In this document: positions 5,181-64,000 of the stretch, piece by piece | Numbering within the stretch: the first letter of the stretch is position 1 | Layout of the letters: the number at the start of each line of letters is the position of its first letter | Assembly: GCF_006345805.1 (NCBI RefSeq) | Contig: NC_043000.1 | Span: 74,338,001-74,402,000, forward strand | From: Octopus sinensis | Taxonomy: Eukaryota | Length of the DNA: 64,000 nt | Direction of reading: 5' to 3' | Notes under the pieces: generated by a model | Told to the model about the DNA's origin: nothing | Database searches by the model: none | Seen by the model: the letters and a program-made list of their open reading frames with translations, nothing else | Program-made: the position numbers and the translations under genes

Positions 5181-5219
5181 CACACACACACACATATGAT
5201 ACACACGCACATACATTGG

Positions 5220-24270: not shown

Positions 24271-24279
24271 AGGTCCTTA

Positions 24280-26200
24280 CCAACTACTCGTCTTTCCCTA
24301 GTTTCTGCATTGACCACCAGATTAGGGATCAGAGAACACTGTCAAATCTTTCTCCAAGTCAACAAAAGGCAAGTATGGAGGTTTATCTTTGGCTATGTAT
24401 TTCTCCTGCAGCTGCCTTACCAGAAATATAGCATCAGTGGTGCTTCTACCTGGCACAAAACCAAACTGCATCTCATCTAGATTAACTCTCTCTCTCTCTA
24501 ATTCATTGGACTCTGACTCTCTCCATAACTTCCATCACCTGATCAAACAGTTTGATACCTCTGTAATTATTTCTATCTAAGGTGTCACCTTTAACTTTAT
24601 AGCAGTTGACTATGGTGCCGCTTACACCAGTCATTGGGTATGACTCCTTCATGAACCACCTGATTTACAATATGGCTGACTAGACTATAACCCACACTGC
24701 AAGATATTTTAAGTGTCTTAGCAGTATTTCCTGATAGGCCGAGGCTTTCCCTATCTTCATATTTTTAATTGCTTTATCTACCAGGGTACTGTCAATTCAA
24801 GTAGCTGGTCCCTCAGTTAGGTTAACATTTGGCAGACTCTCCTCCTCCCATTCATTCTCCACATTCAACAGTCTTTCATAATGGCATTTCCAAGCCTCTT
24901 ACTTTGCAGAATCATTAAAAACTAGTGTACCATCATCCATGAGGACACATTTGTCTCCTATGACATCACAATTTTCTCTCACACATTGTCTTGCAATCTG
25001 AAATACTGAAGTTCATTAGTCCTCATGACATTGAACATAGGCAAGCTTCTTTTCTGTTTCTCTCTTGGCTAGATATACTTGTCTCCTATCTTCCCTTTAG
25101 GCTAATTGATACAGTTTCCTGCTCCCCCCTAATAGCCCTGTCTACAGTATTGTTTCTCCACCATGTTACCCTAGGTCTGGAATGGACTTTCCACCAGCCA
25201 CAGATTTGGTCTGTGGCACTCAGCCTGCTGTCTCGTAGGAATTCCCAGCTGCCCTCTATATCACAAGTTTGTAGCTCCTCCTCCCTCTCATCAAATTTCT
25301 CAATTAGGCTGTCCCTAAATCTCTATCATATGAAGGGTTCTTAAGCTTCCAAATCCTTCTTTTCCAGATTACTCTGCTTCTTGGCATCCTTCTGACCTGG
25401 AGTCTAAAGTCACTAATCTATGCTGGGGGGTACATTCTTCACCAGGGAGGGTCTTTGTATTTCAGAGCAACCATGCATCCCACTGTCTGGTGAGAATGAA
25501 AGCCATCTGGCTAGCAGAGTCAACTGATTGGTAGGTTATCAGATGGATGGATGGCTTCCTGAAGTTGGTGTTACAGATCAATAGGTTATTTGCATCACAA
25601 AACTCCAGTAACCTTGTTCCCTCTTCGTTTCAGGAACCAATTCCATGGCCCCCATGTACACCATGGAAAAATACCAGGCTACTGTCTGACATGCTCTTTG
25701 AAATCCTCAACAAAGAAGATGAGATCATTGTCACTAATCTTTGAGGTAGCCTGCAGAATGCCATAAAAGTGTTCTTCTGTTCATTTGGTAGGTTCACTTG
25801 TGGGGTATAGGCAGATATAATAGTTGCTATACTATTCTACAAGACTAGCCCAAGCTTAAGCATTCTATTGCACACTCTAACTACCTCTATGACCTTCTCC
25901 ACCCACAGAAGTATGCCCACACCACCTACTCCATCGCTGTTACCTTCCCAGAAGATTTTATACCTATGTGTCTTGCCTGTGAGGAACCTAGCTGAAGCTC
26001 CTCTCCACCTTACCTCTTGGATGCAACATACATCAAAATGCCTCCATTCAAGCATCTCTACAATCTTGTTAGACCTACATTTCAATGTGCCTACATTGAC
26101 AGTGCCAACTCTGAAAACTGAGAAAGAGACATGGGAGGTAACATTGGAAGGAGAGATGTTATTCAGCACTTGAAAAGAAAGTTTGCATGGTCATTTGGTA
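24280..26200 (-). mobile_element. RTE LINE 5' half (EN and start of RT), decayed
   Basis: ORF 25837-26169(-) VGTVNVGTLK..DVCCIQEVRWRG..GVGILL; collinear with the 10.7-14.3 kb copy. Confidence 0.85.
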
Positions 26201-26589
26201 ACAGACATGTCAGAATACTTGTATTATAAATTGTTACCCCTACTGGGGATGAGAGTAAGGTAACTATTGTAAATATGAGCGTTACTGCTGCTGCAAATAT
26301 AAATATGTCAATGTTAAATTAAGTAAGTAAATGGGCTGCTATTTAGTTTGAGTTGGTTCATTATGTATGTATGTATATATATACTTAAAGAGAGAGAGAG
26401 GGGAGAGAAGGAGGCAGATGCTTTGGAGGGGAAGGGCGGAGGTATGTAGGTCTTCTGGTGCAGAAGTGAGGCAAAGCACTGCAGGATTTTTTTGTATAAC
26501 AGAAAAGATGGTAGGAGGGAACAGATTTTTACCACAAGAAAATCAGAGTAGCAGCAAAGGACGGTAGTAAAGAAAAGAGTGGTAGAAAG

Positions 26590-29500
26590 ATATGAGAATG
26601 GCTAGCTTCACACCAGCAAAAAAATCGAAACAGCATGAAACAAATGGCAAGCCTCGCTACAAGAAAGTTGAAATAGCATCTAAGGACAATAGTGAATGAA
26701 AGAATAATAGAAACACATGAGGATGGCTAGCTTTACAACAAGAAAATCGAAACAGCATCAAAGAAATGGCAAGCTTCGCTGCAAGAAAGTTGAAATAGCA
26801 CCTAAGGGCAATAGTGAATCAAAGAATAATAGAAACACATGAGGATGGCTAGATTCACAAGAAAATCGAAACAGCATGAAACAAATGGCAAGCTTCGCTA
26901 CAAGAAAGTTGAAATAGCACCTAAGGACAATAGTGAATGAAAGAATGATAGAAAGACATAAGGATGGCTAGCTTCACAACAAGAAAGTTGAAATAGCACC
27001 TAAGGACAATAGTGAATGAAAGAATGATAGAAAGACATAAGGATGGCTAGCTTCACAACAAGAAAGTTGCAATAGCACCTAAGGACAATAATGAATCAAA
27101 GAATAATAGAAACACATGTGAATGGCTAGCTTCACAACATGAAAGAAATGGCAAGCTTCGCTACAAGAAAGTTGAAATAGCACCTATGGACAATAGTGAA
27201 TGAAAGAATGATAGAAAGACATAAGGATGGCTAGCTTCACAACAAGAAAGTTGAAATAGCACCTAAGGACAATAGTGAATGAAAGAATGATAGAAAGACA
27301 TAAGGATGGCTAGCTTCACAACAAGAAAGTTGCAATAGCACCTAAGGACAATAATGAATCAAAGAATAATAGAAACACATGTGAATGGCTAGCTTCACAA
27401 CATGAAAGAAATGGCAAGCTTCGCTACAAGAAAGTTGAAATAGCACCTATGGACAATAGTGCATGAAAGAATAATAGAAACAACATGAAAGAAATGGCAA
27501 GCTTTGCTACAAGAAAGTTGAAATAGCACCTAAGGACAATAGTGAATCAAAGAATAATAGAAACACATGAGGATGGCTAGCTTCACAATAAGCAATTCGA
27601 AACTACATGAAAGAAATGACAAGCTTCGCCATAAGAAAGTTGCAATAGCACCTAAGGACAATAATGAATCAAAGAATAATAGAATCACATGAGAATGGCT
27701 AGCTTCACAACAAGAAAATCGAAACAGCATGAAACAAATGGCAAGCTTGGCTACAAAAAAGTTCAAATAGCATTTAAGGACAATAGTGAATGAAAGAATA
27801 ATAGAAACACATGTGAATGGCTAGCTTCACAACAAGAAAATTGAAACAACATGAAAGAAATGGTTAGCTTCCCTACAAGAAAGATGAAATAGCACCTAAG
27901 GACAATAGTGAATCAAAGAATAAAAGAAACACATGATGATGGCTAGCTTTACAATAAGAAAATCGAAACAGTATCAAAGAAATGGCAAGCTTCGCTACAA
28001 GAAGGTTGAAATAGCACCTAAGGACAATAGTGAATCAAAGAATAATATAAACACATGTGAATGGCTAGCTTCACAAGAAAATCGAAACAACATGAAATAA
28101 ATGGCAAACTTCCCTTCAAGAAAGTTTAAATAGCACCTAAGGACAATAGTGAATCAAAGAATAATAGAAACACATGAGAATGGCTAGATTCACAAGAAAA
28201 TCGAAACAGCATGAAAAAATGGCAAGCCTCGCTACAAGAAAGTTGAAATAGCATCTAAGGACAATAGTGAATGAAAGAATAATAGAAACACATGAGGATG
28301 GCTAGCTTCACAACAAGAAATTCGAAACAACATGAAAGAAATGGCAAGCGTCGCTACAAGAAAGTTGAAATAGCACCTAAGGACAATAGTGAATGAAAGA
28401 ATAATAGAAACACATGAGGATGGCTAGCTTCACAACAAGAAATTCGAAACATGAAGGAAATTCAAGCTTCGCCACAAGAAAGTTGAAATAGCAGTTAAGA
28501 ACTGCTATTAAGAACTGCTAGTGAATCAAAGAATAATAGAAACACACGTGAATGGCTAGCTTCACAACAAGAAAATCGAAATAGCTACAAAGGACAATAG
28601 TAAAGCAAAGAATGATAGAAATACATGATAATGGCTAGCTTTGCCACAAAAACGTCAAAATAGCACCTAAGGACAATAAGGAAGGAAAGAATGATACTTT
28701 TGCAACAAGAAAATTGAATCAGCATGGAAGAAATGGCTAGCTTTACCTCAGGAAAATCGAAATAGCAGCAAAGGACAATAGTGAAACAAGGAATGTTAGA
28801 AATATATGGGAATGTCTAGCTTCCCCACTAGAAAATCAAAATAGCTGCGATGAAATGGCTAGCTTTGCAATAAAAAAATCAAAATAGCAGCAAATGACAA
28901 TAGTGGAGCATAAAATGATAGAAATATATGCGAATTGCTAGCTTTGACACAAGAAAGTCAAAATAGCAGCAAAGAAATGCCTGCTTTCACTAAAAGAAAG
29001 TCTAAATAGCTGCAAAGGATATTAGAAAAGCAAAGAATGCTAAAAGGACATGAGAACGAGTAGCTCTGTTGCAAGAAAATCAAAACAGCAGCAAAGAAAT
29101 GGCTAGCTTCAACACAAGAAAGTTTAATAGGACAATAGTGAAGCAAAGAACTATAGTCATACATGAGAATGGCTAGCTTTGCCGCAAGAATATGGAAACG
29201 GCAGCAAAAAAATGGCTAGCATCACCTCAAGAAAATCAAAATAGCAGCAAAGAAGTGACTAGGTTTTCCACAAGAAAATCAAAATAGCTGCAATGCCATG
29301 GCTAGCTTTGCCACAACAAATTCAACATAGCAGGAAAGAGATAGCTAGTTTTGCCACAAGAGAATTGGAATAGCAATGACAAAGTGGCTAGCTTTGCCAC
29401 AAGGAAATTGAAATAGCAGAAAATCAAAATAGCTGCAAAGAACTGGCTAGATTTGCCACAAGAGAATCGAAATAGCAGAAAAGGACAAAAGTAAAGGAAA

Positions 29501-31285
29501 GAATAATAGAAACATATGAGAACGGCTAGTTTTACAAGAAGAAAATCAAAATACCAACAAATAAATGGCTAGCTTCGCTACAAGAAAATTGAAATAGCAG
29601 CAAAGGAGAGTGGTGAAAGAAAGAATGGTAGAATTACATGAGAATTGCTAGCTTTGCCACAAGAAAATTGAAACAGCAGCAAAGAAAAGGCAAGCTTCGT
29701 GAGAAGAAAATTGAAATAGCAGCAAAGGACAATGGTGAATCAAAGAGTGATTGAAACACATGGGAATGGCTAGCTTCACCTCTAGAAAATTGTAATAGTG
29801 ACTAAGAAATGGCAAGCTTCACGATAAGAAAATCAAAATAAAGCAAAAGAAATGGCTAGTTTCGCCACAAGAACATGAAAATAGCAGCAAAGAAATGGCT
29901 ACTTTTGCTACAAGGAAATTGAAATAGCAGCAATGGACAATAGTGAAGCAAAGAATAATAGAAACACATGAGAATAACTGGCTTTGACTCAAGAAAATTG
30001 AAACAGCAGCAAAGTGGCTAGCTTCACCACAAGAAAATCAAAACAGCAGCAATGAAATGGCTAGCTTTGCCACAGGAAAATTGAAACAGCATCAAAGAAA
30101 GGGTAGCTTCACCACCAGAAAATCAAAATAGCAGCAAAGAAATTGCTAGTTGCACCAAAAGAAAATTGAAATAGCTGCAAAAGAGAAGCAAAATAACTAG
30201 AAACACATGTGGATGGCAAGCTCCATTGCAAGAAAATTGAAATAGCAGCAAAGGACAATAGTGAATCAAAGAATAACAGAAACACATGAGAATAGCTAGC
30301 TTCACCCCAAGAAAATCAAAACAGCAGCAAAGAAATGGCTACCTTCGCCACAAGAGAATCGAAATAGCAGCAAAGGAGAATGACTAGCTTTGCTACCAGA
30401 AAATTGAAATAGCAGCAAAGAAATGTCTAGTTTCAAAAATCAAAATTGCAGCAAAGGACAATAGTGAAGCAAAGAATGACAGAAATACATGAGAATGGCT
30501 ATCTTTGCCACAAAAAAATTTAAACAGTAGCAAAGAACTGGCTAGCTTCACCAGAAGAAAATCAAAATAGCAGCAAAAAATGGTTAGCTTTGGCACAAGA
30601 ATATTGAAAGAGCAGCAAAGGACAATAGTGAAGCAAGAAATGATGGAAACACATGAGAAGGGTAGCTTCACAACAAGAAAATTGAAACAGCAGCAAAAAA
30701 ATGGTTAGCTTTGCCACAAGAAAATCAAAAAAGCAGCAAAGGATAATAGTGAAGGTAAAAATGATAGAAACACATGAGAATGGCTAGCGTTGTCAGAAGA
30801 AAATTGAAACAGCAGCAAAGAAATGGCTAACTTTGCTACAAGAAAATTGAAATCACAGCAAAGTACAATAGTGACGCAAAGAATAATAGAAACACATGAA
30901 AATGTCTGGTTAGCTTCACCGCAAGAGAATCAAAATAGCAGCAAAGAAATGACTAGCTTTGTCATAAGATAGTCGAAATAGCTGCAAAGAAATGGCTAGC
31001 TTTGCTACAAGAACATCGAAATAGCAGCAGAGGACAATAGTGAAGCAAAGAATGTCTGAAGCACATGTGAATGGTTAGCCTCACGAGATAATCGAAATAG
31101 CAGCAAATAAATGGCTAGCTTCACCACAAGAAAATCAAAATAACTGCAAAGAAATGGCCAGCTTCGCCACAAGAAAATCTGAATATCAACAAAGGACAAT
31201 AGTGAAACAAAGAAAGATAGAAACACATAAGAATGGCTAGCTTCACAATAAGAAAGTCAAAACAGCAGCAAAGAAATGGCTTACT
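26590..31285. repeat. Intronic tandem satellite built from 43 bp and 79 bp related monomers (122 bp dimer)
   Basis: Core atggctagcttcaccacaagaaaatcaaaatagcagcaaagaa (43 bp) with or without a ~36 bp insert; measured periods 122 (26644-26766), 79 (26964-27043) and 263 (26885/27148/27411). Confidence 0.95.
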
Positions 31286-31458
31286 TAAACTGAATTTTCT
31301 CTTTTTCTAAATAATTTTTATTATATTATTTCTATTTTGCCATTTTTTGTTTTGTTATATTGGTAATCTCTGAATATGGTATACCTATGCAATAAGTGAC
31401 GATGCTCAGTGCATAGTTTCTAACAGGATACAAGTTTAATTTTTTTCTGTTTTTATAG

Positions 31459-35500: not shown

Positions 35501-38050
35501 TTATGAATACCTGGAAAGAAAAGCAAGTAAAATACAGACAACACAGAAACCATAATATAAATGATCATCACGGTAACTCAAGAAACCCATGATTTACAAC
35601 CAACAATCCAATACATCCTGAATGGCTCAATAAACATAGAAGATGGGAAGAAGACAGAACCTATAGGCAATGGAATATGTGCAAAGAACATGAACCATCC
35701 CCTCACTTATGAAGGAACCAGAACCCTGGACACAGTAATACAATTCCTTTTCTAGGGAGAAAATACCACAACCGGGAATCAGACCTGATGCAACAGAAAA
35801 TTTTAATGAGCACATAGCACAAGTAGACCTGAAGATCATAAATTTGTCAAATAGAAACCTCAACACGAATGAGATGAATCTCCTATTGAGAAGTTTCAAA
35901 TTTATCCTGGCACCCATCCCTAATCTCATTCAGCTGAATGCTGACATTGAGTATTTTAACCACCAACTCTGGCTTATAGAATTCTTTGGCAATAAGGATA
36001 ATAAATCCCACTTCACCCACTACAAGGGGAATAACAAACATTTAGATGCATATATAGACAGTTTTGAAATTTCCCCTAAGTACCCGTAAATGCAAGCAAT
36101 ACCTTCATGAAAAAGAAAAGGAAGCCTTACTAACATTGAAGAATGACAATTCAGTCATCTTAAAAGAAGCCGATAAGGGAGGGGCAATAGTATTCATGGA
36201 CAAGGACTAATATAAAGATTAATTATTGGAAATTCTAACAGACCAAACCTACTACAAGGAAGAACCAAGACACCTGGAAAAATCAAAACAGTAATTAATG
36301 TATACCAAGATTCCTTCACAGACAAGGAGAAAGATTATTGTGACTCTGTAATCAAAGAGAGCAATTTCTACAGATTACCCAAAATCCACAAAAGCTCTGA
36401 AATACAGTGAGCCATAAATGAGCAGAGGAGCCAATACATAAAAGTATTAAGACCTATCTACTAACCTCAAACTGAGACCAATAGTTGCTGAACCTCAAGT
36501 ACCAACACAACAACTGAGTCATCTTTTGGATATACTCCTAAAACCTTTATGCCCATTAATACCCAGCTATATACGGGACTGCATAGATTTCCTCCAGCTC
36601 ATTCTGCCCACTGTCCCAGAAGGTACTATTCTTACAAGGTTTGACGTCATCAATCTTTATATGAATATACCTCAAACTTTGAGCCTGGAAGCAGTCAAAC
36701 ACTAGGTAGAGAAACATAGAAATGGATAAATGAACACTTCATAACTGACTTCATCACCAAGACCACACACCTGGTACTAGAAGAAAACGCCTTTAAATTT
36801 GATAATAAAACACATCAACAGTAAAAGGGCATGGCTATGGGGACGTAGTTTGCACCCTCATATGCTAACCTAGTCATGGGATACATGGAAGAAGAGCTTT
36901 ATGAGGAGGTAGAGAGCTTTTAATCATAATTGCAAGAAGTATGTCATTAAAAAGTGGAAATGCTTCCTTGATGCATGTTTCACCTTTTGGGACAAATCAA
37001 ATGAGGACCTACAAATATTTAATAATATACTCAATACACTTCACCCATCCATCAAATTCATGACAGAAACCAGTTACAATGAATTACCATTCCTAGATAT
37101 TCACATAAAAATACACAACTCCACAGACATTCTACAAAAAATTGGGCATGCAATCATATTTGAATTTATATTCTTGCCATCCCTCACACATCAAAAGGAA
37201 CATACCATACAGCATGGCAAGAAATATCTGTACAATAGTGATTAACCCAAAAATATTTCAAATCCAACTCAATGAGCTCAAAGGCTTACTAACAGAACAG
37301 AATTACCCCTTAGAATTAATAAATGATGGAATTAAAAAGGTGATAATGCTGAGCATCACACAACTAAGGACACCAAAGGTAAAAATTAATGAACACATGC
37401 TTCTATTTATCAATATGTGCAATTCTGGGGTAACCAACATCTTTCACGCCATAAAATCAAACCTACCCATACTTCTACAAATTCCCAAAATGAAAAATCT
37501 TATTGATACAAAGCCCTTACGAAACAGTTGACACCAACCAAAAAATCTCAAAAAAACGCCTCACAAGAGCAAAATTCACATCAGAGAATGAATCAGAATT
37601 CTCTCTAAAAGAATGTGGAACATGCAATAACAACAACTTTAAATATTTAGAAAGTGGTTCCCACATAAAATTCAAGAATGGATTCTCGTTCAGAGTAAAT
37701 GCAGATATGAACTGCAAGGCGCAGAATCTCATATACTACATTACTTGCCCCAACTGCAAGGGAAATTACATTGGCAAAACAAACAATTTCCTCTGCCAAT
37801 GTGGAAGAATCCACAAACAACAGATCCGATAAGCAGAATTGTGCGAGATTCCACTGAGCAAGCATCTAGAAATATGCAGTGAAAGAAAGTTCAAAATCTT
37901 TCCCTTTTGGAAATGTTCAAGAGATGACTCAAAGTTCCGAAAAGCGATGGAGCTACACTTCATCAAAAAATTCTCTCCAAAATCAAATGTTTCAAGGATA
38001 AGCAGAGGAACTACATTTTCTCAAAAAGATTTGAAAGAGAAATAGAGACA
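35500..38050 (+). mobile_element. Penelope-like element (RT + GIY-YIG endonuclease), near full-length, decayed
   Basis: NLSNRNL, LKEADKGGAIV, FYRLPKIHK, RPIVA, FDVINLYMNIP, GMAMGT, YANLVMG, LPFLDI, SCHPSHIKRNIPYS, NCKAQNLIYYITCPNCKGNYIGKT. Confidence 0.92.
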
Positions 38051-38770
38051 ATATGCATGAACACCCCTTCAAATAAATCAAACTATGAACATTACACGGT
38101 TAGCTCATGCAGTCGCTGTGCCCAACTAATGCAACTAGGGAGAAATGATGCAAATACTCCAAAGAACACTATATTGCTGTCTAATATTCACACACCATGT
38201 AAGGTGATATCAATGTATGCTAGATGGTTTTAGTGTCTGTCAAGAAAGCTTCTTCGCGATCATTTTACCACTTTATTATTATTTTCAGAATAGTAATGAT
38301 GATGGAGGAAGAAAACTTTTATATTACAACTGTTACTGTTGTTTCTGAATGTGGCTCCAATGTTAATAACGTGATACTCATCTCTATAAATGATCTGATA
38401 TATAACATTGGAATTTTGATAACTGTTCTCTTATAAAACTTAAATATACCCGAGAAAGCATTTTACCACTGATTAGGGAAGATATCTAATGTAGCTACTT
38501 AAATAATTATGGTGAAGCTAGCCATTTCTTTGCTACTATTTCAATGGTGGCATGTAAACCACTCATTAGGAAGGGCATCAAGCTGGAGAAACCATACCAA
38601 ATCAGACTGGAGTCTGCAGCCTTCCAGCTTGCCAGCCCTGGTCAAACTGTCCAACCCATGGACAACAAACGTTAAATGATAATATATACATATATGTATG
38701 TGTGTATATATATACATATAGTTATATATATATATATATAACTATTTGAACTATATATATATATATATAT

Positions 38771-40388
38771 CATCATCATCGTTTAGTGTCCACTTTCCAT
38801 GCTAGCATAAGTTGGATGGTTCAACTGGGGTCTGGGAAGCCAGAAGGCTGCACCAGACCCATCTGATCTAGCATTGTTTCTACGGCTGGATGCCCTTCCT
38901 AACACCAACCACTCCGTGGGTGCTTTTTACATGCCACCGGCACAGGTGCCGAACGAGGCTGGCAAACGGCCATGATTGGGCGGCGCTGGCAACGGCCACA
39001 TTCGGATGGTTCTCTTACGTGGTATCACAGCTACAATTTCCATTGATGTTGATCAATTTCGATTTTGATTTTGATTCTCACTTGCCTCAACAGGTCTTCA
39101 CAAGTAGAGTTTTGTGTCCCAAGAAGGAAAGGTATGCATAAGTGGACTGGCTACATCCCAGGTAGAGGCCACGGGTTATGGTCTCACTTGTCCTGCCGGG
39201 TTTTCTCACACACAGCATACTTCCAAAGGTCTCGGTCTCTAGTCATTTCCTTGGTGAGACCTAAAGTTCGAAGGTCGTGCTTCACCACCTTGTCCCAGGT
39301 TTTCCTGGGTCTTCCTCTTCCACAGGTTCCCTCAGCCGCTAGGGTGTGGCACTTTTTCACACAACTATCTTCAGCCATTCTCGCCACATGACCATACCAG
39401 CGCAAACGTCTCTCTTGCACACCACAACTGATGCTGCTTAGGTCCAACTTTTCTCTCAAGGTACTTACACTCTGTCGAGTATGAACACTGACATTACACA
39501 TCCTTCGGAGCATACTGGCTTCATTTCTTGCGAGCTTACGCATATCCTCAGCAGTCACGGCCCAAGTTTCACTGCCATGTAACATGGTTGTTCGTACACA
39601 TGCGTCATACAGTCTGCCTTTTACTCTGAGCGAGAGGCCTTTTGTCACTAGCAGAGGTAAGAGCTCTCTGAACTTTGCCCAGGCTATTCTTACTCTAGTA
39701 GTTACACTTTCAGCACACCCGCTACTGACTTGGTCACCTAGGTAACGGAAGCTATCAACTATTTCTAGTTTTTCTCCCTGGAATGTGACGGAAGTTGGTC
39801 TCTGCGCATTTTCAGTGTTTATTGCTCCTGAGCATCTGCTACATACAAAAACTATTTTCCTAGTTAGCCTTCCTTTGACATTGCTGCACCTCTTATGTGT
39901 CCATAGCTTACACTTGTTGCATCTTATAAAGTTTCTACCTACACCTTTTTTACAGATCGAGCAGACCTGAAGGCATTTGTGATTTGTCTACCTTCCTACT
40001 TATTAGGACTTTGGTTTTAACTAGGTTGACTCTAAGGCCCTTTGATTCTAATCCTTGCTTCCACACCTGAAACTTCTCCTCCAGTTCTGATAGTGACTCA
40101 GCAATTAGAGCAAGGTCATCATCATAGAGGAGCTCCCAGGAGCATCCTGTCTTGAATTCCTCCATTATTGCCTGGAGGACTATGATAAATAGGCGGGGGC
40201 TGAGGACTGAACCTTGGTGGACCCCTACCTCTACCCGGAATTCTTCACTCTACTCGTTGCCAACTCTCACCTTACTAGCAGCGTCCCTGAACATGGCTTG
40301 CACAGCTCTCACTAACCATTCATCTATCCCTAGTTTCCTCAGTGACCACCAGATAAGGGATCGGGGGACCCTGTCGAAGGCTTTCTCC
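38771..40388 (-). mobile_element. 5'-truncated, relatively young RTE LINE
   Basis: VGVHQGSVL, LLYDDD, ORF 39184-39648(-) RTE C-terminus; (CAT)n tail; both ends in (TA)n. Confidence 0.92.
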
Positions 40389-51319: not shown

Positions 51320-53698
51320 GTTCTCGGTATTGTGCACGAGTGAGCTAAGTTATGCGGCCGGTTGATTGCCGGGGAGTAAGTCTGAGTACGACGAAGACCA
51401 CGAGTGTGTGTGTCCGTGTGTTATCGACGAGGCACGAAGCGGCGATTTTATGTGCCGAGTTCTCGGTATCGTGCACGAGTGCGCTAAGTTATGCGGCCGG
51501 TTGATTGCCGGGGAGTAAGTCTGAGTACGACGAAGACCACGTGTGTTATCGACGAGGCACGAAGTGGCGATTTTATGTGCCCGATATCGAAAGAACGCAC
51601 CTAAGCTCACGGTATCGCCCACGTACACGTGGACGTACCCGCGACCGATGCCGGAAGGATGTCACGAGATACACGCGGTCGATACAGCGACGTGGTCCGT
51701 CCTGTAAATTCCCGAAAGATGACAACTGCGGCCAGTGCAGGTATTGGTGGGCCTGCGCCAGTCGCGCGGAGCTCCGCCGCGCTACCGTTCCCGATCTAGT
51801 AAGGCTGAAGCGAACCTCACGGTTTCGCCCACGTGAACGTGGACGTAGGCGCGACCGATGCCGTCAGTCGCCGGGAGTGTGTGGCGATATGCAGCGGGTG
51901 AATACAGCGACGTGTTCCGACCCGTAAGCTGACGGATCGGCCTCGGCTGGATAGTCACGGTCTAGGTGACCGTCGCACCCCAAGGGGGTCAAGACTATAT
52001 TGAGGGCTTGCAGTCGGCAGGTGGATGTCTCAGGGATCGTTCGGCAGGATGCCCGAGACGTCAGCCCGGCGGGTGGCCGCCGCCTTCACACCACCCTGCA
52101 TTCTCCGTTCGTCCACGCGTCGCGGAGCCGCCAGCGGCAGGCCTGCTCCGGTCGCCCGTTACTCCGCCGCGCTACCATGCGCGATATTGCCCACATACGC
52201 GAGGACGTAGCCGCAACCGATGCCGGAAGGCGTTCACGAGATACACGCGGTCGATACGGCGACGTGGTCCGTCCCGTAAAATTCCGAAAGATGACAACTG
52301 CGGCTAGCACGAGGTGGAGGCAGGCCTGCGCCGGTCGCCCGTTGCTCCGCCGCGCTACCGTGCCCGAAATCGAAAGAACGAAACTAAGCGCGCGGCTTCG
52401 CCCACGAACGCATGGACGTAGCGAGATGCAGGCGCTTGATACGGCGACGTGGTCCGTCCCGTAAATTCCCGAAAGATGACAAACTGCGGCCAATGTAAGT
52501 AGGGGCTGCCTACGCCAGGCCTTCGACCGCAGCTCCGCCGCGTTACCGTGCCCGTAATCGAAAGAACGAACCTAAGCTCGCGTTATGTGGACGTAGGCGC
52601 GATCGATGCCGTCAGTCTCCGGAAGTGTGTGGAGATACGAACCGAGTAAATAGAGCGACGTGGTCCGACCCGTAAGGTTACGGGTCGGCCCCGGCTGGAT
52701 AGTCACGCTCTAGGTTACCGTCGCTGTAGGTTACCGTCGCACCCCAAGACTATATTGCGGGATCGTTCGGCAGCATGCTCGAGACGTCAGCCTAAGACGC
52801 CGTCAGCCCGGCGGGTGGCCGCCGCCTTCATGCCACCTTGCTTTCTCTGTTCGTCCACGCGCCGCGGGGCAGGCCTGCGCCGGTCGCCCGTTTCTCCGCC
52901 GCGCTACCGTGCCCGAAAACGAAAGAACGAACCTAAGCGTGCGGTATCGCCCACGTACGCGTGGACGTAGCCGCGACCGATGTCGCGAGATGCACGCGCG
53001 CGATACGGCGACGTGGTCCGCACCGTAAATTCCCGAAAGATGACAACTGCGGCCAGTAGAGCGAACCTAAGCTCGCGGTATGGCCCACGTACGCGTGGAT
53101 GTACCCGCGACCGATGACTGGAGTTCACGAGATACACGCGGTCGATACCGCGACGTGGTCCGTCCCGTAAAATCCCGAAAGATGACAACTGCGGCCAGTG
53201 CAGATACCAGCCGATAGCGGCGGGCATGCGCCCGCCTTCGACCGCAGCTCCGCCGCGCTACCATGAGGCTGAAGTGAGGCTGACCGCAGTCCGGACGCAG
53301 TTCGTCACAGCCGTTTCGAAAGGAGGAAGCGACCACCGACGCATAGGGCACCGGGCGAGTCTAAAAGCTGCAGCGGGCCCGCCCATCGCCACTGCCCCTC
53401 TCGTCTACCGCCTTAGTCGCTGGCCCGAAACCGGCCCCAATCGACCCGCACCGGGGCCGCTGCGGACGGAGCACAAACCGTTTTTTACTCCGCGAACGCT
53501 TCTTCGCGCGTTGTCTCGTTTGTTTTCGCCTCCCCAGCGTTGGATGAGGCGCGCATGTATACAAACGGCGGCCGAACTCATGAGCGCTCGCCTCTGTTTT
53601 CTGCCCGCCGATTCCTCTTCTCATTTTTTTCCAATCGGCGGCAGCGGCTGCTTCGCGAGCTTCCACCGCTGCCGCGCTTCGTTTCTAAACGTCGGTGA
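51320..53698 (+). other. rDNA intergenic spacer / 5' ETS with GC-rich subrepeats (copy 1)
   Basis: Lies between the 28S and 18S pieces; recurring 'gcgacgtggtccgtcccgtaaattcccgaaagatgacaactgcggcc' motif and two ~755 bp higher-order units; CpG-rich. Confidence 0.85.
52665..52761 (+). promoter_or_regulatory. Candidate RNA Pol I promoter/start (TATATTGCGGG at 52751), with a duplicate spacer-promoter-like copy (TATATTGAGGG at 51996)
   Basis: A TATA-like word followed by GGG in an otherwise GC-rich spacer, repeated once per long subrepeat, ~950 nt upstream of 18S; preceded by the dyad ccgacccgtaa-gg-ttacgggtcgg. Inferred by analogy to other invertebrate rDNA start sites. Confidence 0.4.
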
Positions 53699-53921
53699 TA
53701 CCTGGTTAATCCTGCCAGTAGTCATATGCTTGTCTCAAAGCTTATGCCATGCCGTAAACAAAGGGTGAAACTGCGAATGGCTCAGAAACCGGACCTAATC
53801 CTCGGGACCGTATTCTTCCACCGTTGTCGGCGCGTTCTCTGATGGCCCGGAGAAGACGACCGAACCCGATCGCTTAGAGGAAGTAAAAGTCGTAACAAGT
53901 TTTCCTGCGGAAGGATCATTA
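53699..53921 (+). pseudogene. Internally deleted 'mini-18S' rRNA, copy 1 (223 nt)
   Basis: TACCTGGTTAATCCTGCCAGTAGTCATATGCTTGTCTCAAAG..GAAACTGCGAATGGCTCA fused to ..TTAGAGGAAGTAAAAGTCGTAACAAG..TGCGGAAGGATCATTA. Confidence 0.92.
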
Positions 53922-55169
53922 GCGCCGTTTCTAAAAAAACGCCAACTTGCAATCCGCCCATTTCTCAAGTTTCAAATTAGTTGTTTAGTACTCATTTGTA
54001 ATATTTTGGCACATTTTGTTTTCTGAAAACTTATTATCAATCAGTGAAACCATAAGCGTTTGTTGCAAGTAAGCATAAAAATGCAGAAAATTACTAATTT
54101 TGAAATTGTTGAATCAAGATATGTACCCAAGAAATCTCTGAAATCACAAAAGCTTTCAGAAAGCAAGATGCACTAAAATATTTGCAAACAAACATGAAAT
54201 TTCTAGTAAATATATTATTCTAGTAAATAAATTATATTTACCCAAGAGATATAGACAAAAACTTATTATTATGCTGTAGACAAAAACTTATTATTAAATC
54301 ATTCTATACACAGTAAAACACGAATTGTGCCAAAAAATGTGCTTATTTGTTGTTAATATTTTTGCACATTTTGTTTTCTGAAAACTTTTGATATTTTAGT
54401 GATACATTTTTCAAACAAACTGTCAGAATATTGCAAATAAGAATAAAAAGTGAACAAAATATTTAATTGAAATTTATATTTTAGCAATTATTTGCAATAT
54501 TTTGACATTTAGTTTTATAAAAACTTTTGATATTTTAGTGGTCTTTTGGATAAAAATATAATATTATAATCAATCAAAATATTGCAAAGATATCAATAAA
54601 GAGATCACTGAAATCACAAAAGTTTTCAAAAAAAAAAAAGGTGCCAAAATATTGCAAATAAGAATAAAAAGTAAACAAAATTAACAATTGCACATAATTG
54701 CTAATTCGAATTTGTTATATTTTAATACTTATTTGACAAATTTGGTTTTCTGAAAACTTTTGTGATTTTAGTAATCGGATAGATATAATCTTTTTATGAA
54801 TCAAGATATTTTCCCAAGAGATCTCTGAAATCGGAATATATTGCAAATGTGCATGAAGAAGTAAAGAAAATGCCATTCATACTGATATATTTCTACAAAA
54901 ACCCAAGAGACAAAAACTTATCAATCAGTTAAACCATTGTATACAGAAAAACTTATTTTCAATGAGTATTATACATTTGTGTCATGACATTTTTTTGATA
55001 AAACTTTCATAACTTCTCAGTAAAAAGTCATGGAGCTCACTGAAACCAAAAAAATTTTCAGAAAACAAATTTTTTTACATTTTACATTTTCGAAATTTTT
55101 TTGACAGACACTTTTCATACTCATTTTTAAAAAACTTTTATACTAATAATCCCATATGCATTGCAAATA

Positions 55170-55910
55170 AAAACAGATATAGTTAGAGCTTTGCATAATA
55201 ATATTTAGGCACTTTGGTAAGAATAAATTTGGTCAATTACTTAACAATGGAACTGTTAGAATAGCATTACACATAATCTAGCCATTATCATCTCATCATT
55301 TAAATAACAGAAAGTTGAATTTAGATAGTAGTAATTTGCCTCTCTATAATCGTAGGAACTTTTGGAGCTAACGCCTTGCAAATCATGATGGTACCTGTAA
55401 GGAAAAATATTAATGTAATAGATGATACCACTACCACCAATACTATTACTATTGATAGGAATATCGCCAATAATGAGAAATCAAATCATTCGTTGAATTT
55501 GGGATTGGATAGTAAAAATAATTGTAACACTATTAATGGGAATAGTATTGCAGAAATTTTAGCCAATATTAGATTAATCCAACCTGTTGATAACTGTAAT
55601 TTCAGAAACAGAAATAAATGTGTGTTTGGTAATCAATGCCTCAAGAAAGAGGTAGTTTATCAATGCACTGGGGATACACAATTTAGCAGTAGGGTATACA
55701 TCAGAGCAACTATGAATACCATGAAACAGAGACTTAAATATCATGGGAACTCAAAAGTAAGAACTTAGATTTTAAATTAAATTGGAAAATAGTAACTTCT
55801 GCTCTCTATGTATTAATGAAATTTTTCATCATCAAAGTTGGTAGGCCTATTATTAATAATGATAATGAAAAAAATTTTTTTTGCATTTACAAACCACCGT
55901 ACACTTTCTC
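55170..55910 (+). mobile_element. Penelope-like GIY-YIG endonuclease relic, copy 1
   Basis: HFGKNKFGQLLNNGTVRI, CNFRNRNKCVFGNQCLKKEVVYQCT, VYIRATMNTMKQRLKYH, NWKIV, KFFII..FFCIYK. Confidence 0.75.
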
Positions 55911-57466
55911 TAGATTTAAATACAACTTAGCATTTCTACAAGTAATATTAGGGTTGCCTATGAAATTGTTATTTTTAGTAAAAGCCTTGTTCCTCCTCCA
56001 TCCCATGTTTACTATCTTGTCATGTTACCATAATGTCATATTATCATAATTATTGCGTATTATCATACCTACCATTAGTTTTGATATTATTGTGGATTTT
56101 AAATATAATTAAAGTATTTGTTAGCGATATTAAAAAATATAATTTTCATAAATTTTTGAGTTTGTTCATAATATCATTTTTCCAATAATAGTAATAACGA
56201 CCAAGTGTCTATTTATTTTACATGTAGAATTATATGTAGATATAATTCTACTTGTAAATTGAAAAAATTATTATAATTTAGATAATATAATAGATGAGAA
56301 GAATTATCGGAAGTTAAATATTAAAACTAAACTCTCTCAACATATGTTGAATAAAAGTTCAGCAGGTCAGCTGAATATTTGTGTGCATAAATATAAATTA
56401 AATTAGGATATTATTTGTAGTGCTAAACTATAGGGAGAAATAATTGACAAATTTAAGTACTTTTATATTAGATTTAAATGATAAATAAATAACTATACTA
56501 TAAATAAATTTCAACATATTTGATTTAATTACAAAATATTTACTTTAAATTTATAGTAACTATTCATTTGAATTCAATAAATTACTATTTTAAATATTTG
56601 TTGATGGTGAGATTAAAACGGGTTGAATGGTAATCTAATTATCAATCAGTTAAACAAAGAGATCACTGATATCACAAAATTTTTCGAGAAGAAAATGTGT
56701 CAAAATATTGCGATAAAACTGAAGAGAACGAAATATGGAATTAAAATTGCAAATAAATACAAATTTATTGTTGTTTAGTACTTATTTGTAATATTTTGGC
56801 ACATTTTAATTTCTTAAAACTTTTGATATTTTATTGATAAATATAATCTTAATATCAATTAATTAAACAAAGAGATCAATAAAATCACAAAACTTTTCAA
56901 AAAAAAAATTGTCGGCTGTGAATAAATTTGCGACCATAGTGTGTGTATGTGTTTGTGTATCTGTGTTTGTCCTCATTATATGTAAATATAATTATATATA
57001 TACCTTCTCAAATCACTAAAAAGTAATAAAATATTGCAAATATTGAAAAGATGTTAACTTATCACTGAAACCACAATAAAGATTTTAGTAATCACTTTGA
57101 TATATATAATCTTATAAATATAAAACTTTTCAGAAAAAAAATTTCAAAATATTGCAAATAAGAATAAAAATTTACAAAATAATTAATTTAAATTTATTTT
57201 TCAGCAATTATTTGCAATAGTTTGACTGAATTAGTTTTATAAAAACTTTTGATATTTGGATAAATATGAACTTATTCAATCAAAATATTGCAAAGATTAC
57301 ATGTTTACGAAAAAGATCACTGAAACCACAGGAGCTTATTGCAAATGAGCACAAAATTGCTAATTCAAAAATAGTTTTGCACATATTGTGTTCTTACTTA
57401 GATTTAATTGATCAATAAATAAATTATATTTTATAGATAAAAACTTGTTAAAACAATAATTATTAA

Positions 57467-58001
57467 AAATTTAAATTAGCAACTTTGTTCACTTTTTATG
57501 CTTATCTGCAATAAACTCATGTAATTTCAGTAAATTTGTAAATATAAGTTAACTAATTGATATCTTACATTTTATCACATTTTAGTTATATTATAAATAT
57601 CCAAAAAATAAATGCGTCAAAATATTGCAAATAAATGATGAATAATAACAACTTTCAAATTTTAATGATCGCTTTCTTTAGCTAATTGATAATAGTTATC
57701 ACTATAATATGAAAGCTTTTAGGAACCAAATTGTGCACAATTTGGTTCCTAAAAGCTTTGATATTATAGTGATAACTATTATCAATTAGCTAAAGAAAGC
57801 GATCATTAAAATTTGAAATTTATTATTCATCATTTATTTGCAATATTTTGACGCATTTATTTTTTGGATATTTATAATATAACTAAAATGTGATAAAATG
57901 TAAGATATCAATTAGTTAACTTATATTTACAAATTTTCTGAAATTACATGAGTTTATTGCAGATAAGCATAAAAAGTGAACAAAATTGCTAATTTAAATT
58001 T
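57467..58001. repeat. Spacer-less palindrome, ~270 bp arms
   Basis: Centre ggaaccaaattgtg|cacaatttggttcc at 57735/57736; arms match with about 3 substitutions and one short indel. Confidence 0.95.
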
Positions 58002-58199
58002 GTTACTATATTATTGTTACATTTTATCACATTTTAGTGATTTAATTGATTAAAATAAGATTATATTTATGTAAAAGACTACTAAAAAAAGTCAATTACA
58101 TATATTGTTTACTTTTTATTCTTATTTGCAATACAATATACAAATTGAAATTTGTTCAGTTTTACGTTTGTTTGCAATATTTTAGAATATCTTATTATT

Positions 58200-58430
58200 T
58201 TTAATATATGTATATAATATATACATATATATATATAAAATATATATATATTATATATATAATAAACACATATAATATATACATATATATAAAATGTATA
58301 TACATACATATATATTTAAAATCTGTATATAAAATTTATATATATCATATATATATATAATTATATATACATATATATACTATATACATATATATATATA
58401 TAATATATACCTATATATACATATACATAA
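58200..58430. repeat. Degenerate (TA)n array
   Basis: Directly visible. Confidence 0.9.
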
Positions 58431-59698
58431 GAGACTTCAATCTACCCAATGTCAGAGGGCCTTTCTCCCCCAGGAATGACAAGATGTGAACGAGGACAGG
58501 CGAGGTACCTCCTGAACCTCATCAACACCCTGTACATGGAGCAAGTAATACTCCAACCAACCAGAGCAGGTAACACACTGGATGTCTGCTTCACAAATAA
58601 AATGGATCTCATCCATAATATGAAAGTGACACCGACACTACTTTCGGATCACAACATGGTAGAGCTGACCATGTACGGGCCAAAAGAGAGCACGGACATG
58701 CAGCCTACAAGAAACCCTCAGAATCTTTCCAGCTTGAACTTCAATAAGGCAAACTGGAAACAAATTGAGAAAGAGATCCTCAAAAAAAACTGGCCTGAAG
58801 TCTCTCCTCGCCGGACATCGACATGATACTTCAACAATTCATGTCTGTAATGCAAGCCATATGCTACAAATGTGTCCCAGAGAGAAAGGCCACTGTACAC
58901 AAGAACAAAATCCCCAGAGAGAGGAAAATTTTAATGAGACAGCGTACAAAAATTTCAAATTGCCTAAACAAACAAATTGAAAGCAGTGAAAAGTCCCGCC
59001 TGAAAATAAAACTGTTGGAAATTGAAAATTGTCTGCAACTCTCCCATGAGAAGGAAAGAGCAGACAAAGAAGCCTGGGCTATAGACAACATAAAAACTAA
59101 CCCCAGAGCTTTCTACAGGTATGCCAAAGAAACAGCTACGGTGCACTGTAGGATAGGGCCACTCCTTGAAAAGGATGGCACACTCACAGGAAAACCAATG
59201 AGGGTAAGTGAAATACTGAATGAACAATTCAAGAGTGTTTTCACTCCACCCCTTGGGCATTTCCAACTCAGCAATCCAACTGACTTCTTTACCACTGCAG
59301 ATATAGAATCAGAGGCGGCGACGATAAATTATATCGATGTAATAAAGGCTATAGATGAAATGAAAATAGACTCAGCTATTGGCCCCGATGGATTCCCGGC
59401 AATCCTCCTAAAAGTATGTAAGAGAGTCTTAGCAAGACCACTGCAGTTCCTCTTTCAGAGCTTCCTTGCAGCTGGCAAACTTCCAAGGAAACTGAAGGAA
59501 GGTAAAATATGCTCTATTGATAAAGGAGGTAGCAGAGCGGAGGCCAAGAACTACAGACCTATCTCTCTGACCTCACATCAGCAAGGTCATGGAACGAATA
59601 GTCAGAAGGAAACTAATCACCTTCCTTGAAGAAAATGACTTGCTGCCTGACACCCAACATGGTTTCCGACCAGGAAGAAGCTGCTTAACTCAGCTCCA
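58431..59698 (+). mobile_element. CR1/L2-clade LINE ORF2 fragment truncated at both ends
   Basis: DFNLP, QPTRAGNTLDVCFTN, LSDHNMV, NFNKANW, IKTNPRAFYRY, SAIGPDGFP, NYRPISLTS, QHGFRPGRSCLTQL, then an abrupt join to IGS. Confidence 0.9.
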
Positions 59699-61568
59699 CA
59701 CGGTTTCGCGTACGTGAACGTGGACGTAGGCGCGACCGATGCCGTCAGTCGCCGGGAGTGTGTGGCGATATGCAGCGGGTGAATACAGCGACGTGTTCCG
59801 ACCCGTAAGCTGACGGATCGGCCCCGGCTGGATAGTCACGGTCTAGGTGACCGTCGCACCCCAAGGGGGTCAAGACTATATTGAGGGCTTGCAGTCGGCA
59901 GGTGGATGTCTCAGGGATCGTTCGGCAGGATGCCCGAGACGTCAGCCCGGTGGGTGGCCGCCGCCTTCACACCACCCTGCATTCTCCGTTCGTCCACGCG
60001 TCGCGGAGCCGCCAGCGGCAGGCCTGCTCCGGTCGCCCGTTACTCCGCCGCGCGCGATAAGGCGTTTACGAGATACACGCGGTCGATACGGCGACGTGGT
60101 CCGTCCCGTAAAATTCCGAAAGATGACAACTGCGGCTAGCACGAGGTGGAGGCAGGCCTGCGCCGGTCGCCCGTTGCTCCGCCGCGCTACCGTGCCCGAA
60201 ATCGAAAGAACGAAACTAAGCGCGCGGCTTCGCCCACGAACGCATGGACGTAGCGAGATGCAGGCGCTTGATACGGCGACGTGGTCCGTCCCGTAAATTC
60301 CCGAAAGATGACAACTGCGGCCAGTGTAAGTAGGGGCTGCCTACGCCAGGCCTTCGACCGCAGCTCCGCCGCGTTACCGTGCCCGTAATCGAAAGAACGA
60401 ACCTAAGCTCGCGTTATGTGGACGTAGGCGCGATCGATGCCGTCAGTCTCCGGAAGTGTGTGGAGATACGAACCGAGTAAATAGAGCGACGTGGTCCGAC
60501 CCGTAAGGTTACGGGTCGGCCCCGGCTGGATAGTCACGCTCTAGGTTACCGTCGCACCCCAAGTATATTGCGGGATCGTTCGGCAGCATGCTCGAGACGT
60601 CAGCCTAAGACGCCGTCAGCCCGGCGGGTGGCCGCCGCCTTCACGCCACCTTGCTTTCTCTGTTCGTCCACGCGCCGCGGGGCAGGCCTGCGCCGGTCGC
60701 CCGTTTCTCCGCCGCGCTACCGTGCCCGAAAACGAAAGAACGAACCTAAGCGTGCGGTATCGCCCACGTACGCGTGGACGTAGCCGCGACCGATGTCGCG
60801 AGATGCACGCGCGCGATACGGCGATGTGGTCCGCACCGTAAATTCCCGAAAGATGACAACTGCGGCCAGTATAAGTAGGGGCTGTCTTCGCCAGCAGCTC
60901 CGCCACGTTACCATGCCCGATATCGAAAGAGCGAACCTAAGCTCGCGGTATGGCCCACGTACGTGTGGATGTACCCGCGACCGATGACTGGAGTTCACGA
61001 GATACACGCGGTCGATACCGCGACGTGGTCCGTCCCGTAAAATCCCGAAAGATGACAACTGCGGCCAGTGCAGATACCAGCCGATAGCGGCGGGCATGCG
61101 CCCGCCTTCGACCGCAGCTCCGCCGCGCTACCATGAGGCTGAAGTGAGGCTGACCGCAGTCCGGACAAAGTTCGTCACAGCCGTTTCGAAAGGAGGAAGC
61201 GACCACCGACGCATAGGGCACCGGGTGAGTCTAAAAGCTGCAGCGGGCCCGCCCATCGCCGCTGCCCCTCTCGTCTGCCGCCTTAGTCGCTGGCCCGAAA
61301 CCGGCCCCAATCGACCCGCACCGGGGCCGCTGCGGACGGAGCACAAACCGTTTTTTACTCCGCGAACGCTTCTTCGCGCGTTGTCTCGTTTGTTTTCGCC
61401 TCCCCAGCGTTGGATGAGGCGCGCATGTATACAAACGGCGGCCGAACTCATGAGCGCTCACCTCTGTTTTCGGCCCGCCGATTCCTCTTCTTATTTTTTT
61501 CCAATCGGCGGCAGCGGCTGCTTCGCGAGCTTCCGCCGCTGCCGCGCTTCGTTTCTACACGTCGGTGA
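59699..61568 (+). other. rDNA IGS/5' ETS, copy 2
   Basis: Near-identical to 51818-53698 (offset ~7881); TATATTGAGGG at 59877, TATATTGCGGG at 60564. Confidence 0.9.
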
Positions 61569-61800
61569 TACCTGGTTAATCCTGCCTTGTCATATGCTTG
61601 TCTCAAAGCTTATGCCATGCCGTAAACAAAGGGTGAAACTGCGAATGGCTCAGAAACCGGACCTTATCCTCGGGACCGTATTCTTCCACCGTTGTCGGCG
61701 CGTTCTCTGATGGCCCGGAGAAGACGACCGAACCCGATCGCTTAGAGGAAGTAAAAGTCGTAACAAGTTTTCCGTAGGTGAACCTGCCGAAGGATCATTA
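61569..61800 (+). pseudogene. Internally deleted 'mini-18S' rRNA, copy 2 (232 nt)
   Basis: Same 5'/3' fusion as copy 1; retains TTTCCGTAGGTGAACCTGC.GAAGGATCATTA. Confidence 0.92.
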
Positions 61801-61849
61801 GCGCCGTTTCTAAAAAAACGCCAACTTGCGATCCGCCCATTTCTCAAGT

Positions 61850-63130
61850 TTCAAATTAGTTGTTGTTTAGTACTTATTTGTAATATTTTGGCACATTTTG
61901 TTTTCTGAAAACTTATTATCAATCAGTGAAACCATAAGCGTTTGTTGCAAGTAAGCATAAAAATGCAGAAAATTACTAATTTTGAAATTGTTGTATCAAG
62001 ATATTTACCCAAGAAATCTCTGAAATCGCAAAAGCTTTCAGAAAGCAAGATGCACTAAAATTTGCAAACAAACATGAAAAAATGAACATTTGCATTTATA
62101 CTGATCTATTTCTAGTAAATATATTATTGTAGTAAATAAATTATATTTACCCAAGAGATATAGACAAAAACTTATTATTATTGTGTAGACAAAAACTTAT
62201 TATTAAATCATTCTATACACAGTAAAACACGAATTGTGCCAAAAAGTGTGCTTATTTGTTGTTAATATTTTTGCACATTTTGTTTTCTGAAAACTTTTGA
62301 TATTTTAGTGATACATATAATTTTACTATCAACTAGTTAAACAAAGAGATCACTAAAATCACAAAAGTTTTCAAACAAACTGTCAGAATATTGCAAATAA
62401 GAATAAAAAGTGAACAATATATTTAATTGAAATTTATATTTTAGCAATTATTTGCAATATTTTGACATTTAGTTTTATAAAAACTTTTGATATTTTAGTG
62501 GTCTTTTGGATAAAAATATAATATTATAATCAATCAAAATATCACAAAGGTTTTCAAAAAACAAAATGTGCCAAAATATTGCAAATAAGTATAAAAAGTA
62601 AACAAAATTAACAATTGCACATAATTGCTAATTCGAATTTATTATATTTTAATACTTATTTGACAAATTTGGTTTTCTGAAAACTTTTGTGATTTTGGTA
62701 ATCGGTTAGATATGATCTTTTTATGAATCAAGATATTTTCCCAAGAGATCTCTGAAATAGGAATATATTGCAAATGTGCATGAAGAAGTAAAGAAAATGC
62801 CATTCATACTGATATATTTCTACAAAAAGTAAGATACAAAAACCCAAGAGACAAAAACTTATGAATCAGTTAAACCATTGTATACAGAAAAACTTATTTT
62901 CAATGAGTATTATACATTTGCGTCATGACATTTTTTTGATAAAACTTTCATAACTAAGTAATGGAGATCACTGAAACCAAAAAAATTTTCAGAAAACAAA
63001 ATGAGCGATGATATTGCTAACAAATAATACATTTTTTTTACATTTTACATTTTTGACATTTTTTTGACAGACACTTTTCATACTCATTTTTAAAAAACTT
63101 TTATACTAATAATCCCATATGCATTGCAAA
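61850..63130. repeat. AT-rich foldback-like modules, copy 2
   Basis: Collinear with 53970-55170 apart from reciprocal indels. Confidence 0.85.
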
Positions 63131-63920
63131 TAAAAACAGATATAGTTAGAGCTTTGCATAATGTAATATTTAGGCACTTTGGTAAGGGTAAGAATAAATT
63201 TGGTCAATTACTTAACAATGGAACTGTTAGAATAGCATTACACATAATCTAGCCATTATCATCTCATCATTTAATAACAGGAAACTGGCTTGCTTCTATA
63301 ATGACAGAAAGTTAAATTTAGATAATAGTAATTTGCCTCTCTATAATCGTAGGAACTTTTGGAGCTAACGCAAACAACCTTCTTGCAAATCATGATAGTA
63401 CCTGTAAGGAAAAATATTAATGTAATAGATGATACCACTACCACCAATACTATCGCCAATAATGACAAATCAAATCATTCGTTGAATTTGGGATTGGATA
63501 GTAAAAATAATTGTAACACTATTAATGGGAATAGTATTGCAGAAATTTTGGCCAATATTAGATTAATCCAACCTGTTGATAACTGTAATTTCAGAAACAG
63601 AAACAAATGTGTGTTTGGTAATCAATGCCTCAAAAAAGAGGGATACACAATTTAGCAGTAGGGTATACATCAGAGCAACTATGAATACCATGAAACAGAG
63701 ACTTAAATATCATAGATATACTTTTAGAAATAAAAATAGGATGTACTCTACGGGGTTAAGTGCGCATATTTGGGAACTCAAAAGTAAGAACTTAAATTGG
63801 AAAATAGTAACTTCTGCTCTCTATGTATTAATGAAATTTTTCATCATCAAAGTTGGTAGGCCTATTATTAATAATAATAATGAAAAAAACTTTTTTTGCA
63901 TTTATAAACTACCGTACACT
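63130..63920 (+). mobile_element. Penelope-like GIY-YIG relic, copy 2
   Basis: Same as copy 1, and retains HRYTFRNKNRMYSTGLSAHIWELKSKN, which copy 1 lacks. Confidence 0.78.
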
Positions 63921-64000
63921 TTCTCTAGATACAACTTAGCTTTTCTACAAGTAATATTAGGGTTGCCTATCAAATTGTTATTTTTAGTAAAAGCCTTGTT

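Follow-up and report, generated by a model that had tools for sequence, protein, structure and literature searches.

What does a 7.9-kb unit represent that joins ribosomal DNA (rDNA) to transposon relics and a long hairpin and then begins again: a working cassette, a satellite in the making, or debris? The unit lies at the right end of a 64,000-nucleotide (nt) stretch of the Octopus sinensis genome (assembly GCF_006345805.1, contig NC_043000.1, positions 74,338,001 to 74,402,000), which we call the window. All coordinates are window positions; copy 1 is the unit that begins at 51818 and copy 2 the unit that begins at 59699. A preliminary description had proposed that the unit could be a cassette driven by RNA polymerase I (Pol I). 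Its anatomy and tandem arrangement hold, but the idea of a free-standing cassette does not, since unit 1 continues a stranded rDNA pseudogene. From the sequence, the locus is probably an inert rDNA pseudogene lying among transposon debris, within which a young local tandem duplication of 7.9 kb arose, the two copies since decaying independently. An inert segmental duplication, which that description had set against its own proposal, is the likelier case.

The duplication and its junction

Self-comparison of the window shows that 51818-55991 is repeated head-to-tail at 59699-64000, with an offset of 7881, which agrees with the repeat of about 7.9 kb first described. Copy 2 is cut by the window end, leaving a visible partner for 53% of the unit only; the other 3707 of its 7881 nt, in which the palindrome, the (TA)n tract and the LINE (long interspersed nuclear element) relic described below all lie, are seen once. 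Across 4003 aligned columns, 61 substitutions (1.52%; 36 transitions and 25 transversions) separate the two copies. Transitions in CpG columns make up 9 of the 22 substitutions of the rDNA part, where such columns number 549 of 2034 under a definition that is itself biased. To these come 26 indels, with 14 of the extra pieces confined to copy 1 and 12 to copy 2. Just two of the 26 are 1 nt long, while 19 are of at least 6 nt (sizes 6-58 nt), or 0.31 per substitution.

Wherever an indel could be polarised it was a deletion, and such deletions are found in both copies. Neither copy is an intact master, as each carries private deletions, and with 61 substitutions and 26 indels the two visible copies have not been homogenised; as members of an array they would be edge copies. 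At the ends of 18 indels, microhomology averages 2.4 nt, where the null gives 0.9. Most of that signal stems from two events that resemble duplications (14 and 8 nt), and we do not claim a repair pathway from it.

The junction between the copies, at 59698/59699, is gapless and lacks extended homology. Its left side is the middle of a LINE reverse transcriptase (RT) and its right side the middle of a spacer subrepeat. In a tblastn comparison with P0001, its best relative, LINE similarity ends at residue 302 of 438, exactly at the junction and inside the RT domain (242-419). The preliminary description's fusion of a LINE fragment to the next intergenic spacer is thus confirmed, with CR1 as its putative clade. 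The joining of a mid-RT sequence to a mid-subrepeat sequence without homology suggests that the duplication was local and non-homologous.

Such a junction could also arise if an assembler had set two haplotypes in tandem, or two contigs with repeats at their ends. The repeats on both sides of the junction, LINE and rDNA spacer, are the usual places for contigs to end, and a divergence of 1.5% falls in the allelic range of some marine invertebrates. We nevertheless think a false duplication quite unlikely. The join shows neither gap nor overlap, and the window contains no N bases. The differences look biological, with their mix of transitions and transversions and their near lack of 1-nt indels, unlike read error, and 19 indels of at least 6 nt within 4 kb would be a high number for alleles.

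Public sequencing runs speak to the unit's content, not to its junctions. Of the words sampled from 53300-59900, a share of 0.58-0.60 is present in four of the 24 listed runs, from two studies; sequence derived from rDNA and LINE makes up about 0.31 of the 31-mers of that stretch. The AT-rich block of the unit, or close paralogues of it, is therefore present in at least one study besides a possible source. The other runs (0.13-0.18 in 14 of the 24, 0.03-0.04 in four and 0.34-0.38 in two) were not used. The 24 listed runs include no RNA run, which carries no meaning for expression.

The ribosomal pieces

The pieces of rRNA gene in the window keep their native order on the + strand: the 3' part of 28S, spacer, then the ends of 18S. 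The first of them, 28S fragment 1 (50081..51004, + strand), lies outside the repeated unit, corresponds to about 2279-3002 of the 3401 positions of the Rfam model and lacks the last 400 or so, the 3' end. By eye, its first 200 nt or so show three differences from the O. vulgaris and O. sinensis sequences given as 'Downstream 28S' in the excerpted entries of Table S2 of PMC13188248, an agreement that assigns the window to the genus Octopus. The 28S homology begins at 50081, and the downstream junction published there for the R2 retrotransposon falls at 50082, within 1 nt. (Background on R2 is given in the consulted parts of PMC5035012, PMC13188248 and PMC6530143.)

Two R2 elements, R2-1_OVu and R2-1_OSi, are recorded for Octopus in the same excerpted table, and fragment 1 starts where their 'Downstream 28S' starts. 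The difference lies upstream, where the window has a gypsy-like relic and unassigned DNA and no R2 sequence was identified. None of six short motifs matched Table S2 of PMC13188248, whose 400-character excerpts exclude the 3' untranslated ends of R2. The gypsy-like relic is an RNase H remnant (Pfam E 1e-11) within 47280-49990 with a 51-nt internal duplication; the unassigned, possibly LTR-like (long terminal repeat) stretch that follows it adjoins 28S fragment 1. No second LTR was found for the relic.

Fragment 1 is followed by a scrambled block (51085..51581, + strand) in which a 124-138 nt repeat occurs three times, once partial and twice nearly complete. The block also contains 28S fragment 2 (51150-51318, + strand, model about 2180-2388), which is more diverged than fragment 1 and has the R2 target site deleted. 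The 124-138 nt repeat has no Rfam match, and we rejected the idea that it represents the 28S 3' end, as Rfam gives it no support. In the rDNA of this locus, two lesions that are independent of each other fall on the R2 target site: fragment 1 begins there, and the older fragment 2 has lost it.

GC-rich subrepeats of the intergenic-spacer type, of 140-190 nt and about 330 nt classes, occupy 51577..53290 (+ strand), between 28S and 18S. The repeated unit starts inside them, at 51818, the left end given in the preliminary description, which overlooked the context to its left. The spacer of unit 1 is continuous with the upstream 28S fragments, its subrepeats running left past 51818 to 51577, so 51818 is no element boundary. 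A non-repetitive GC-rich stretch before 18S (53291..53698, + strand) presumably holds the promoter and a remnant of the 5' external transcribed spacer (ETS), and the stub of about 40 nt after 18S (53922..53960, + strand) is presumably the start of the first internal transcribed spacer (ITS1). Both are placed by position only; 'ETS', 'promoter', 'ITS1-like' and 'foldback' are labels drawn from position or resemblance. Copy 2 repeats the subrepeats and ETS-like stretch at 59699..61568 (+ strand). After its 18S remnant, its remaining sequence (61801..64000, + strand) carries the ITS1 stub, AT-rich modules (eight matches, 61867-63022) and an endonuclease relic (63097-63962).

Between the spacers, the Rfam small-subunit model confirms the reported mini-18S in both copies, at 53699..53921 (223 nt, 12% of model length) and at 61569..61800 (232 nt, with private lesions), both on the + strand. 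Each consists of the two ends of 18S without the middle: the 5' 114 nt correspond to model positions 1-129 of 1831 and the remainder to the 3' end, about 1.6 kb of the model being gone from both copies. Copy 1 departs from the Rfam consensus by an 11-nt deletion at 53904 that disrupts the terminal helix, and copy 2 by a 2-nt loss; each lesion sits where the other copy matches the consensus. Five change events fall in the 221 columns of the mini-18S, against 57 in the 1969 of the transposon debris (Fisher p = 0.83), and folding is at shuffle level (z = 0.42; 129 of 200 shuffles fold equally well). With no deficit of change and no excess of folding, the mini-18S shows no constraint.

Rfam found no 5.8S or 28S in 53922-59700 or in copy 2, which bears out the reported lack of these genes inside the unit. 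With an 18S that is not full-length and neither 5.8S nor 28S downstream of it, this is not a functional 45S unit. Native order, an internal deletion, private lesions in both copies and the absence of constraint are what an rDNA pseudogene would show.

Spacer divergence and the prospect of a larger array

Several observations weigh against a simple pseudogene that was duplicated once. Copy 2 is incomplete at the window end, and in real arrays it is often the edge units that have diverged most. A divergence of 1.5% is hence compatible with an array, as the visible copies may be its edge copies. Indels of at least 6 nt are also unusually common, at 0.31 per substitution against 0-0.066 in five pairs of RTE LINEs from the window, an imperfect baseline of older pairs that diverged partly under selection.

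The spacer adds to this. It has 11 substitutions in 1415 columns (0.78%), against 50 in 2588 (1.93%) elsewhere (Fisher p = 0.004), so that substitutions are 2.5 times rarer in 51818-53300 than in the remainder of the unit; against the ETS-like stretch alone p = 0.047. The contrast is post hoc, among five regions. Such low divergence could reflect constraint, or gene conversion with active rDNA or further copies as donors. The ETS-like stretch shows no lowering of the spacer type, its 8 substitutions in 398 columns (2.0%) being like those of debris. Lastly, 28S fragment 2 differs by about 10% from the Octopus 28S excerpted in PMC13188248, against about 1.5% for fragment 1 (both by eye), and part of the locus may therefore come from an older degenerate rDNA family.

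Some of these points favour a reading in which a larger tandem array, a functionless, rDNA-derived satellite of long unit that grows by unequal exchange, was born here and has its left edge in the window. The head-to-tail layout, with copy 2 running into the window end, would suit it. The lower spacer divergence would be compatible with conversion among copies, and the diverged 28S fragment hints at the older family it might have come from. Tomato offers a precedent, with seven variant units in one bacterial artificial chromosome (in the consulted part of PMC2679016). We regard such an array as possible though unlikely, as there are 26 indels between neighbours, no intact master is seen, and the junction resembles a single local event. 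The pseudogene with one local duplication remains the reading we favour.

AT-rich modules, the palindrome and the transposon relics

Beyond the ITS1 stub the unit leaves rDNA. AT-rich modules of alternating orientation form a left cluster at 53986..54776 (seven matches) and a right cluster at 56658..58133 (eight, including those within the palindrome). The preliminary description's inverted AT-rich modules were thus found, with 15 matches in unit 1 and eight in copy 2, mostly alternating. The module does not occur elsewhere in the window, in the reversed-window control or in the metagenome and viral contigs scanned; an Octopus-type 28S motif likewise had no match in the metagenome scan. Compared with Foldback (FB-type) elements, the modules stand in two alternating clusters, and termini and a target-site duplication are not defined.

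The right cluster contains a loopless palindrome of 535 nt at 57467..58001 (arms of 269 and 266 nt), followed by a degenerate (TA)n tract at 58202..58430, both as reported before. The arms differ by four mismatches in 266 paired columns and one 3-nt indel, a divergence of 1.5% that equals that of the units; the palindrome is thus probably of the same young age. Its folding has a z of -51.6. Rfam matches to miRNA families on the palindrome were rejected, all being under the gathering score and reflecting hairpin shape.

Between the clusters lies a frameshifted GIY-YIG endonuclease relic without RT (55143..55992, + strand). Its best match in a profile search is an O. bimaculoides protein named for the GIY-YIG domain (E 1e-23), and weak Pfam GIY-YIG matches, all below the curated cut-off, occur in 5 of the 20 relatives scanned (of 150 listed). 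The relic itself matches no Pfam family, and a word-based homologue search gave no match among three candidates; an Atlas score of 0.90 serves as a lead only. By eye, two long relatives carry RT-like motifs. The GIY-YIG part of the earlier 'Penelope GIY-YIG relic' is therefore supported, and the relic is presumably Penelope-like, Penelope-like elements having a GIY-YIG endonuclease C-terminal to the RT. Its frame is broken by a 58-nt loss in copy 1 and by a 20-nt loss in copy 2, the other copy being intact at each place.

The second relic, the frameshifted LINE at 58431..59698 (+ strand), runs from the end of the endonuclease to the start of the RT, where the junction cuts it. It shows a weak Exo_endo_phos_2 match (E 0.0013), and its relatives, which are octopod, carry RVT_1; we take it to resemble the CR1 group. 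All coding relics in the unit are frameshifted, and both transposon relics are in sense orientation on the + strand.

This arrangement bears on the cassette of the preliminary description, in which a promoter would be maintained to read through the mini-18S, the AT-rich modules, the relics and the 535-nt hairpin and so yield endogenous small interfering RNA (endo-siRNA) or PIWI-interacting RNA (piRNA). Indeed, the presumed promoter, the relics and a near-perfect hairpin lie in a row along the + strand, and the spacer is the least substituted part. The unit lacks the 28S 3' end and with it, probably, a normal terminator. In Drosophila, piRNAs act on aberrant rDNA units (according to the consulted part of 10.1101/2025.04.30.651568), but in that case the aberrant rDNA is what becomes silenced and does not serve as a source. 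Where the promoter is expected, the ETS-like stretch has diverged like debris, and the mini-18S is unconstrained. Both relics are sense, and the hairpin derives from local AT-rich sequence with no shown target. With private deletions in both copies as well, the sequence lends a functional Pol I cassette no support, and we consider it very improbable. An amplified, octopus-specific 'mini-rDNA', in which a captured Pol I promoter would make the pseudogene a source of endo-siRNA or piRNA, seems just as doubtful.

The surroundings are those of a debris field. There is no rDNA in positions 1-50000 of the window, and these first 50 kb consist of LINE, satellite, Helitron-like and gypsy-like debris. 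One LINE family has several diverged copies (3000-5200, 10680-14500, 23690-26060, 38770-40400 and 42930-43190), some mutually inverted, with a PHD-like finger recognised by Pfam; from its motifs we take it to be RTE-like. An A-rich satellite of 4.7 kb (26527-31290) has modules of 43, 79 and 122 nt arranged in higher-order periods of 184, 203, 263 and 481 nt. Broken frames at 35700-37900 resemble, by eye, a second Penelope-like relic with RT-like and C-terminal endonuclease-like parts, and have no clear Pfam match. The frameshifted frames at 46300-46950 resemble a PIF1-type Helitron helicase.

How the locus may have formed, and its counterparts

The rearrangements can be read in the window itself; their causes, part of their order and the inertness of the locus are our reconstruction. 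An rDNA piece that began at the R2 site in 28S, spanned spacer, ETS and 18S and ended in ITS1 would first have been stranded outside the rDNA array or at its edge. Its left end at the R2 site suggests either a cut by R2 or an R2-inserted unit that had lost the R2 body. The piece then lost the 18S middle, the 28S 3' end and everything beyond the ITS1 stub, and as these losses are common to both copies they predate the duplication. A non-homologous tandem duplication of the part from spacer to LINE, likely one break-and-join event, would next have originated at this locus. Each copy afterwards lost its own pieces of 6-58 nt in spacer, 18S and GIY-YIG relic, and the same deletion-biased decay may have produced the mini-18S in the first place. 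The palindrome would stem from a local foldback event at about the time of the duplication. Leaky read-through by Pol I could occur as a by-product.

If this is correct, the locus is an rDNA pseudogene of the ordinary kind, whose modest value is that it captures the birth of an rDNA-derived repeat in a cephalopod at an early stage: the parent locus, the first junction and the deletion-biased decay are all in view, and two lesions suggest the R2 site as a break point. A high copy number would make it an animal counterpart to the spacer-derived satellites of plants, with an unusually long and chimeric unit; and if the hairpin gave small RNAs under Pol I, it would be a new route to silencing RNA. 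We found no description of octopus rDNA spacers or of a comparable cephalopod unit in the literature covered, which leaves out most subscription papers.

Among known systems, one chimera of similar make-up is SCLR of Drosophila melanogaster, named from its Stellate, copia-like, LINE and rDNA fragments, with a unit size that is reportedly 60 kb. Like the octopus unit it combines rDNA fragments with transposon relics, in a region that is heterochromatic and is described as a nonfunctional Stellate variant (PMC6325706, consulted in part). It differs in having a protein gene, and the consulted part of that paper describes neither a spacer-led 7.9-kb unit nor a long palindrome.

Rearranged rDNA outside the working array is itself common, with fragments scattered in the human genome (PMC8954558) and pseudogenes bearing retrotransposons in Lepidoptera (PMC10257491). 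As far as the consulted parts of these papers go, the octopus locus shares with such orphons and pseudogenes its diverged, rearranged rDNA and its association with mobile elements. It is set apart by its tandem duplication together with flanking debris and by two lesions on the R2 site.

Further parallels are in plants, in the consulted part of PMC2679016. The tandem monomer of potato 2D8 is likewise several kilobases long and pairs a GC-rich, spacer-like part with clusters of AT-rich subrepeats. In 2D8 the AT-rich part, too, derives from spacer, and the array is large, whereas in octopus the AT-rich block follows an ITS1 stub and the 18S ends are kept. In the tomato clone HBa0007F24, segmental duplication has multiplied rDNA units that are truncated and bear a retrotransposon in 18S; there are seven of them, and the process leads to spacer-derived satellites (PMC2679016). 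Both there and in octopus, diverged, truncated rDNA has been segmentally duplicated together with a retrotransposon, coding sequence being lost and spacer kept. Tomato retains pieces of 18S, 5.8S and 25S, has a gypsy insertion in 18S and has amplified subrepeats of 52-53 nt. In contrast, the octopus unit has an internally deleted 18S and no 5.8S or 28S, more than half of it is not rDNA, and two copies are seen.

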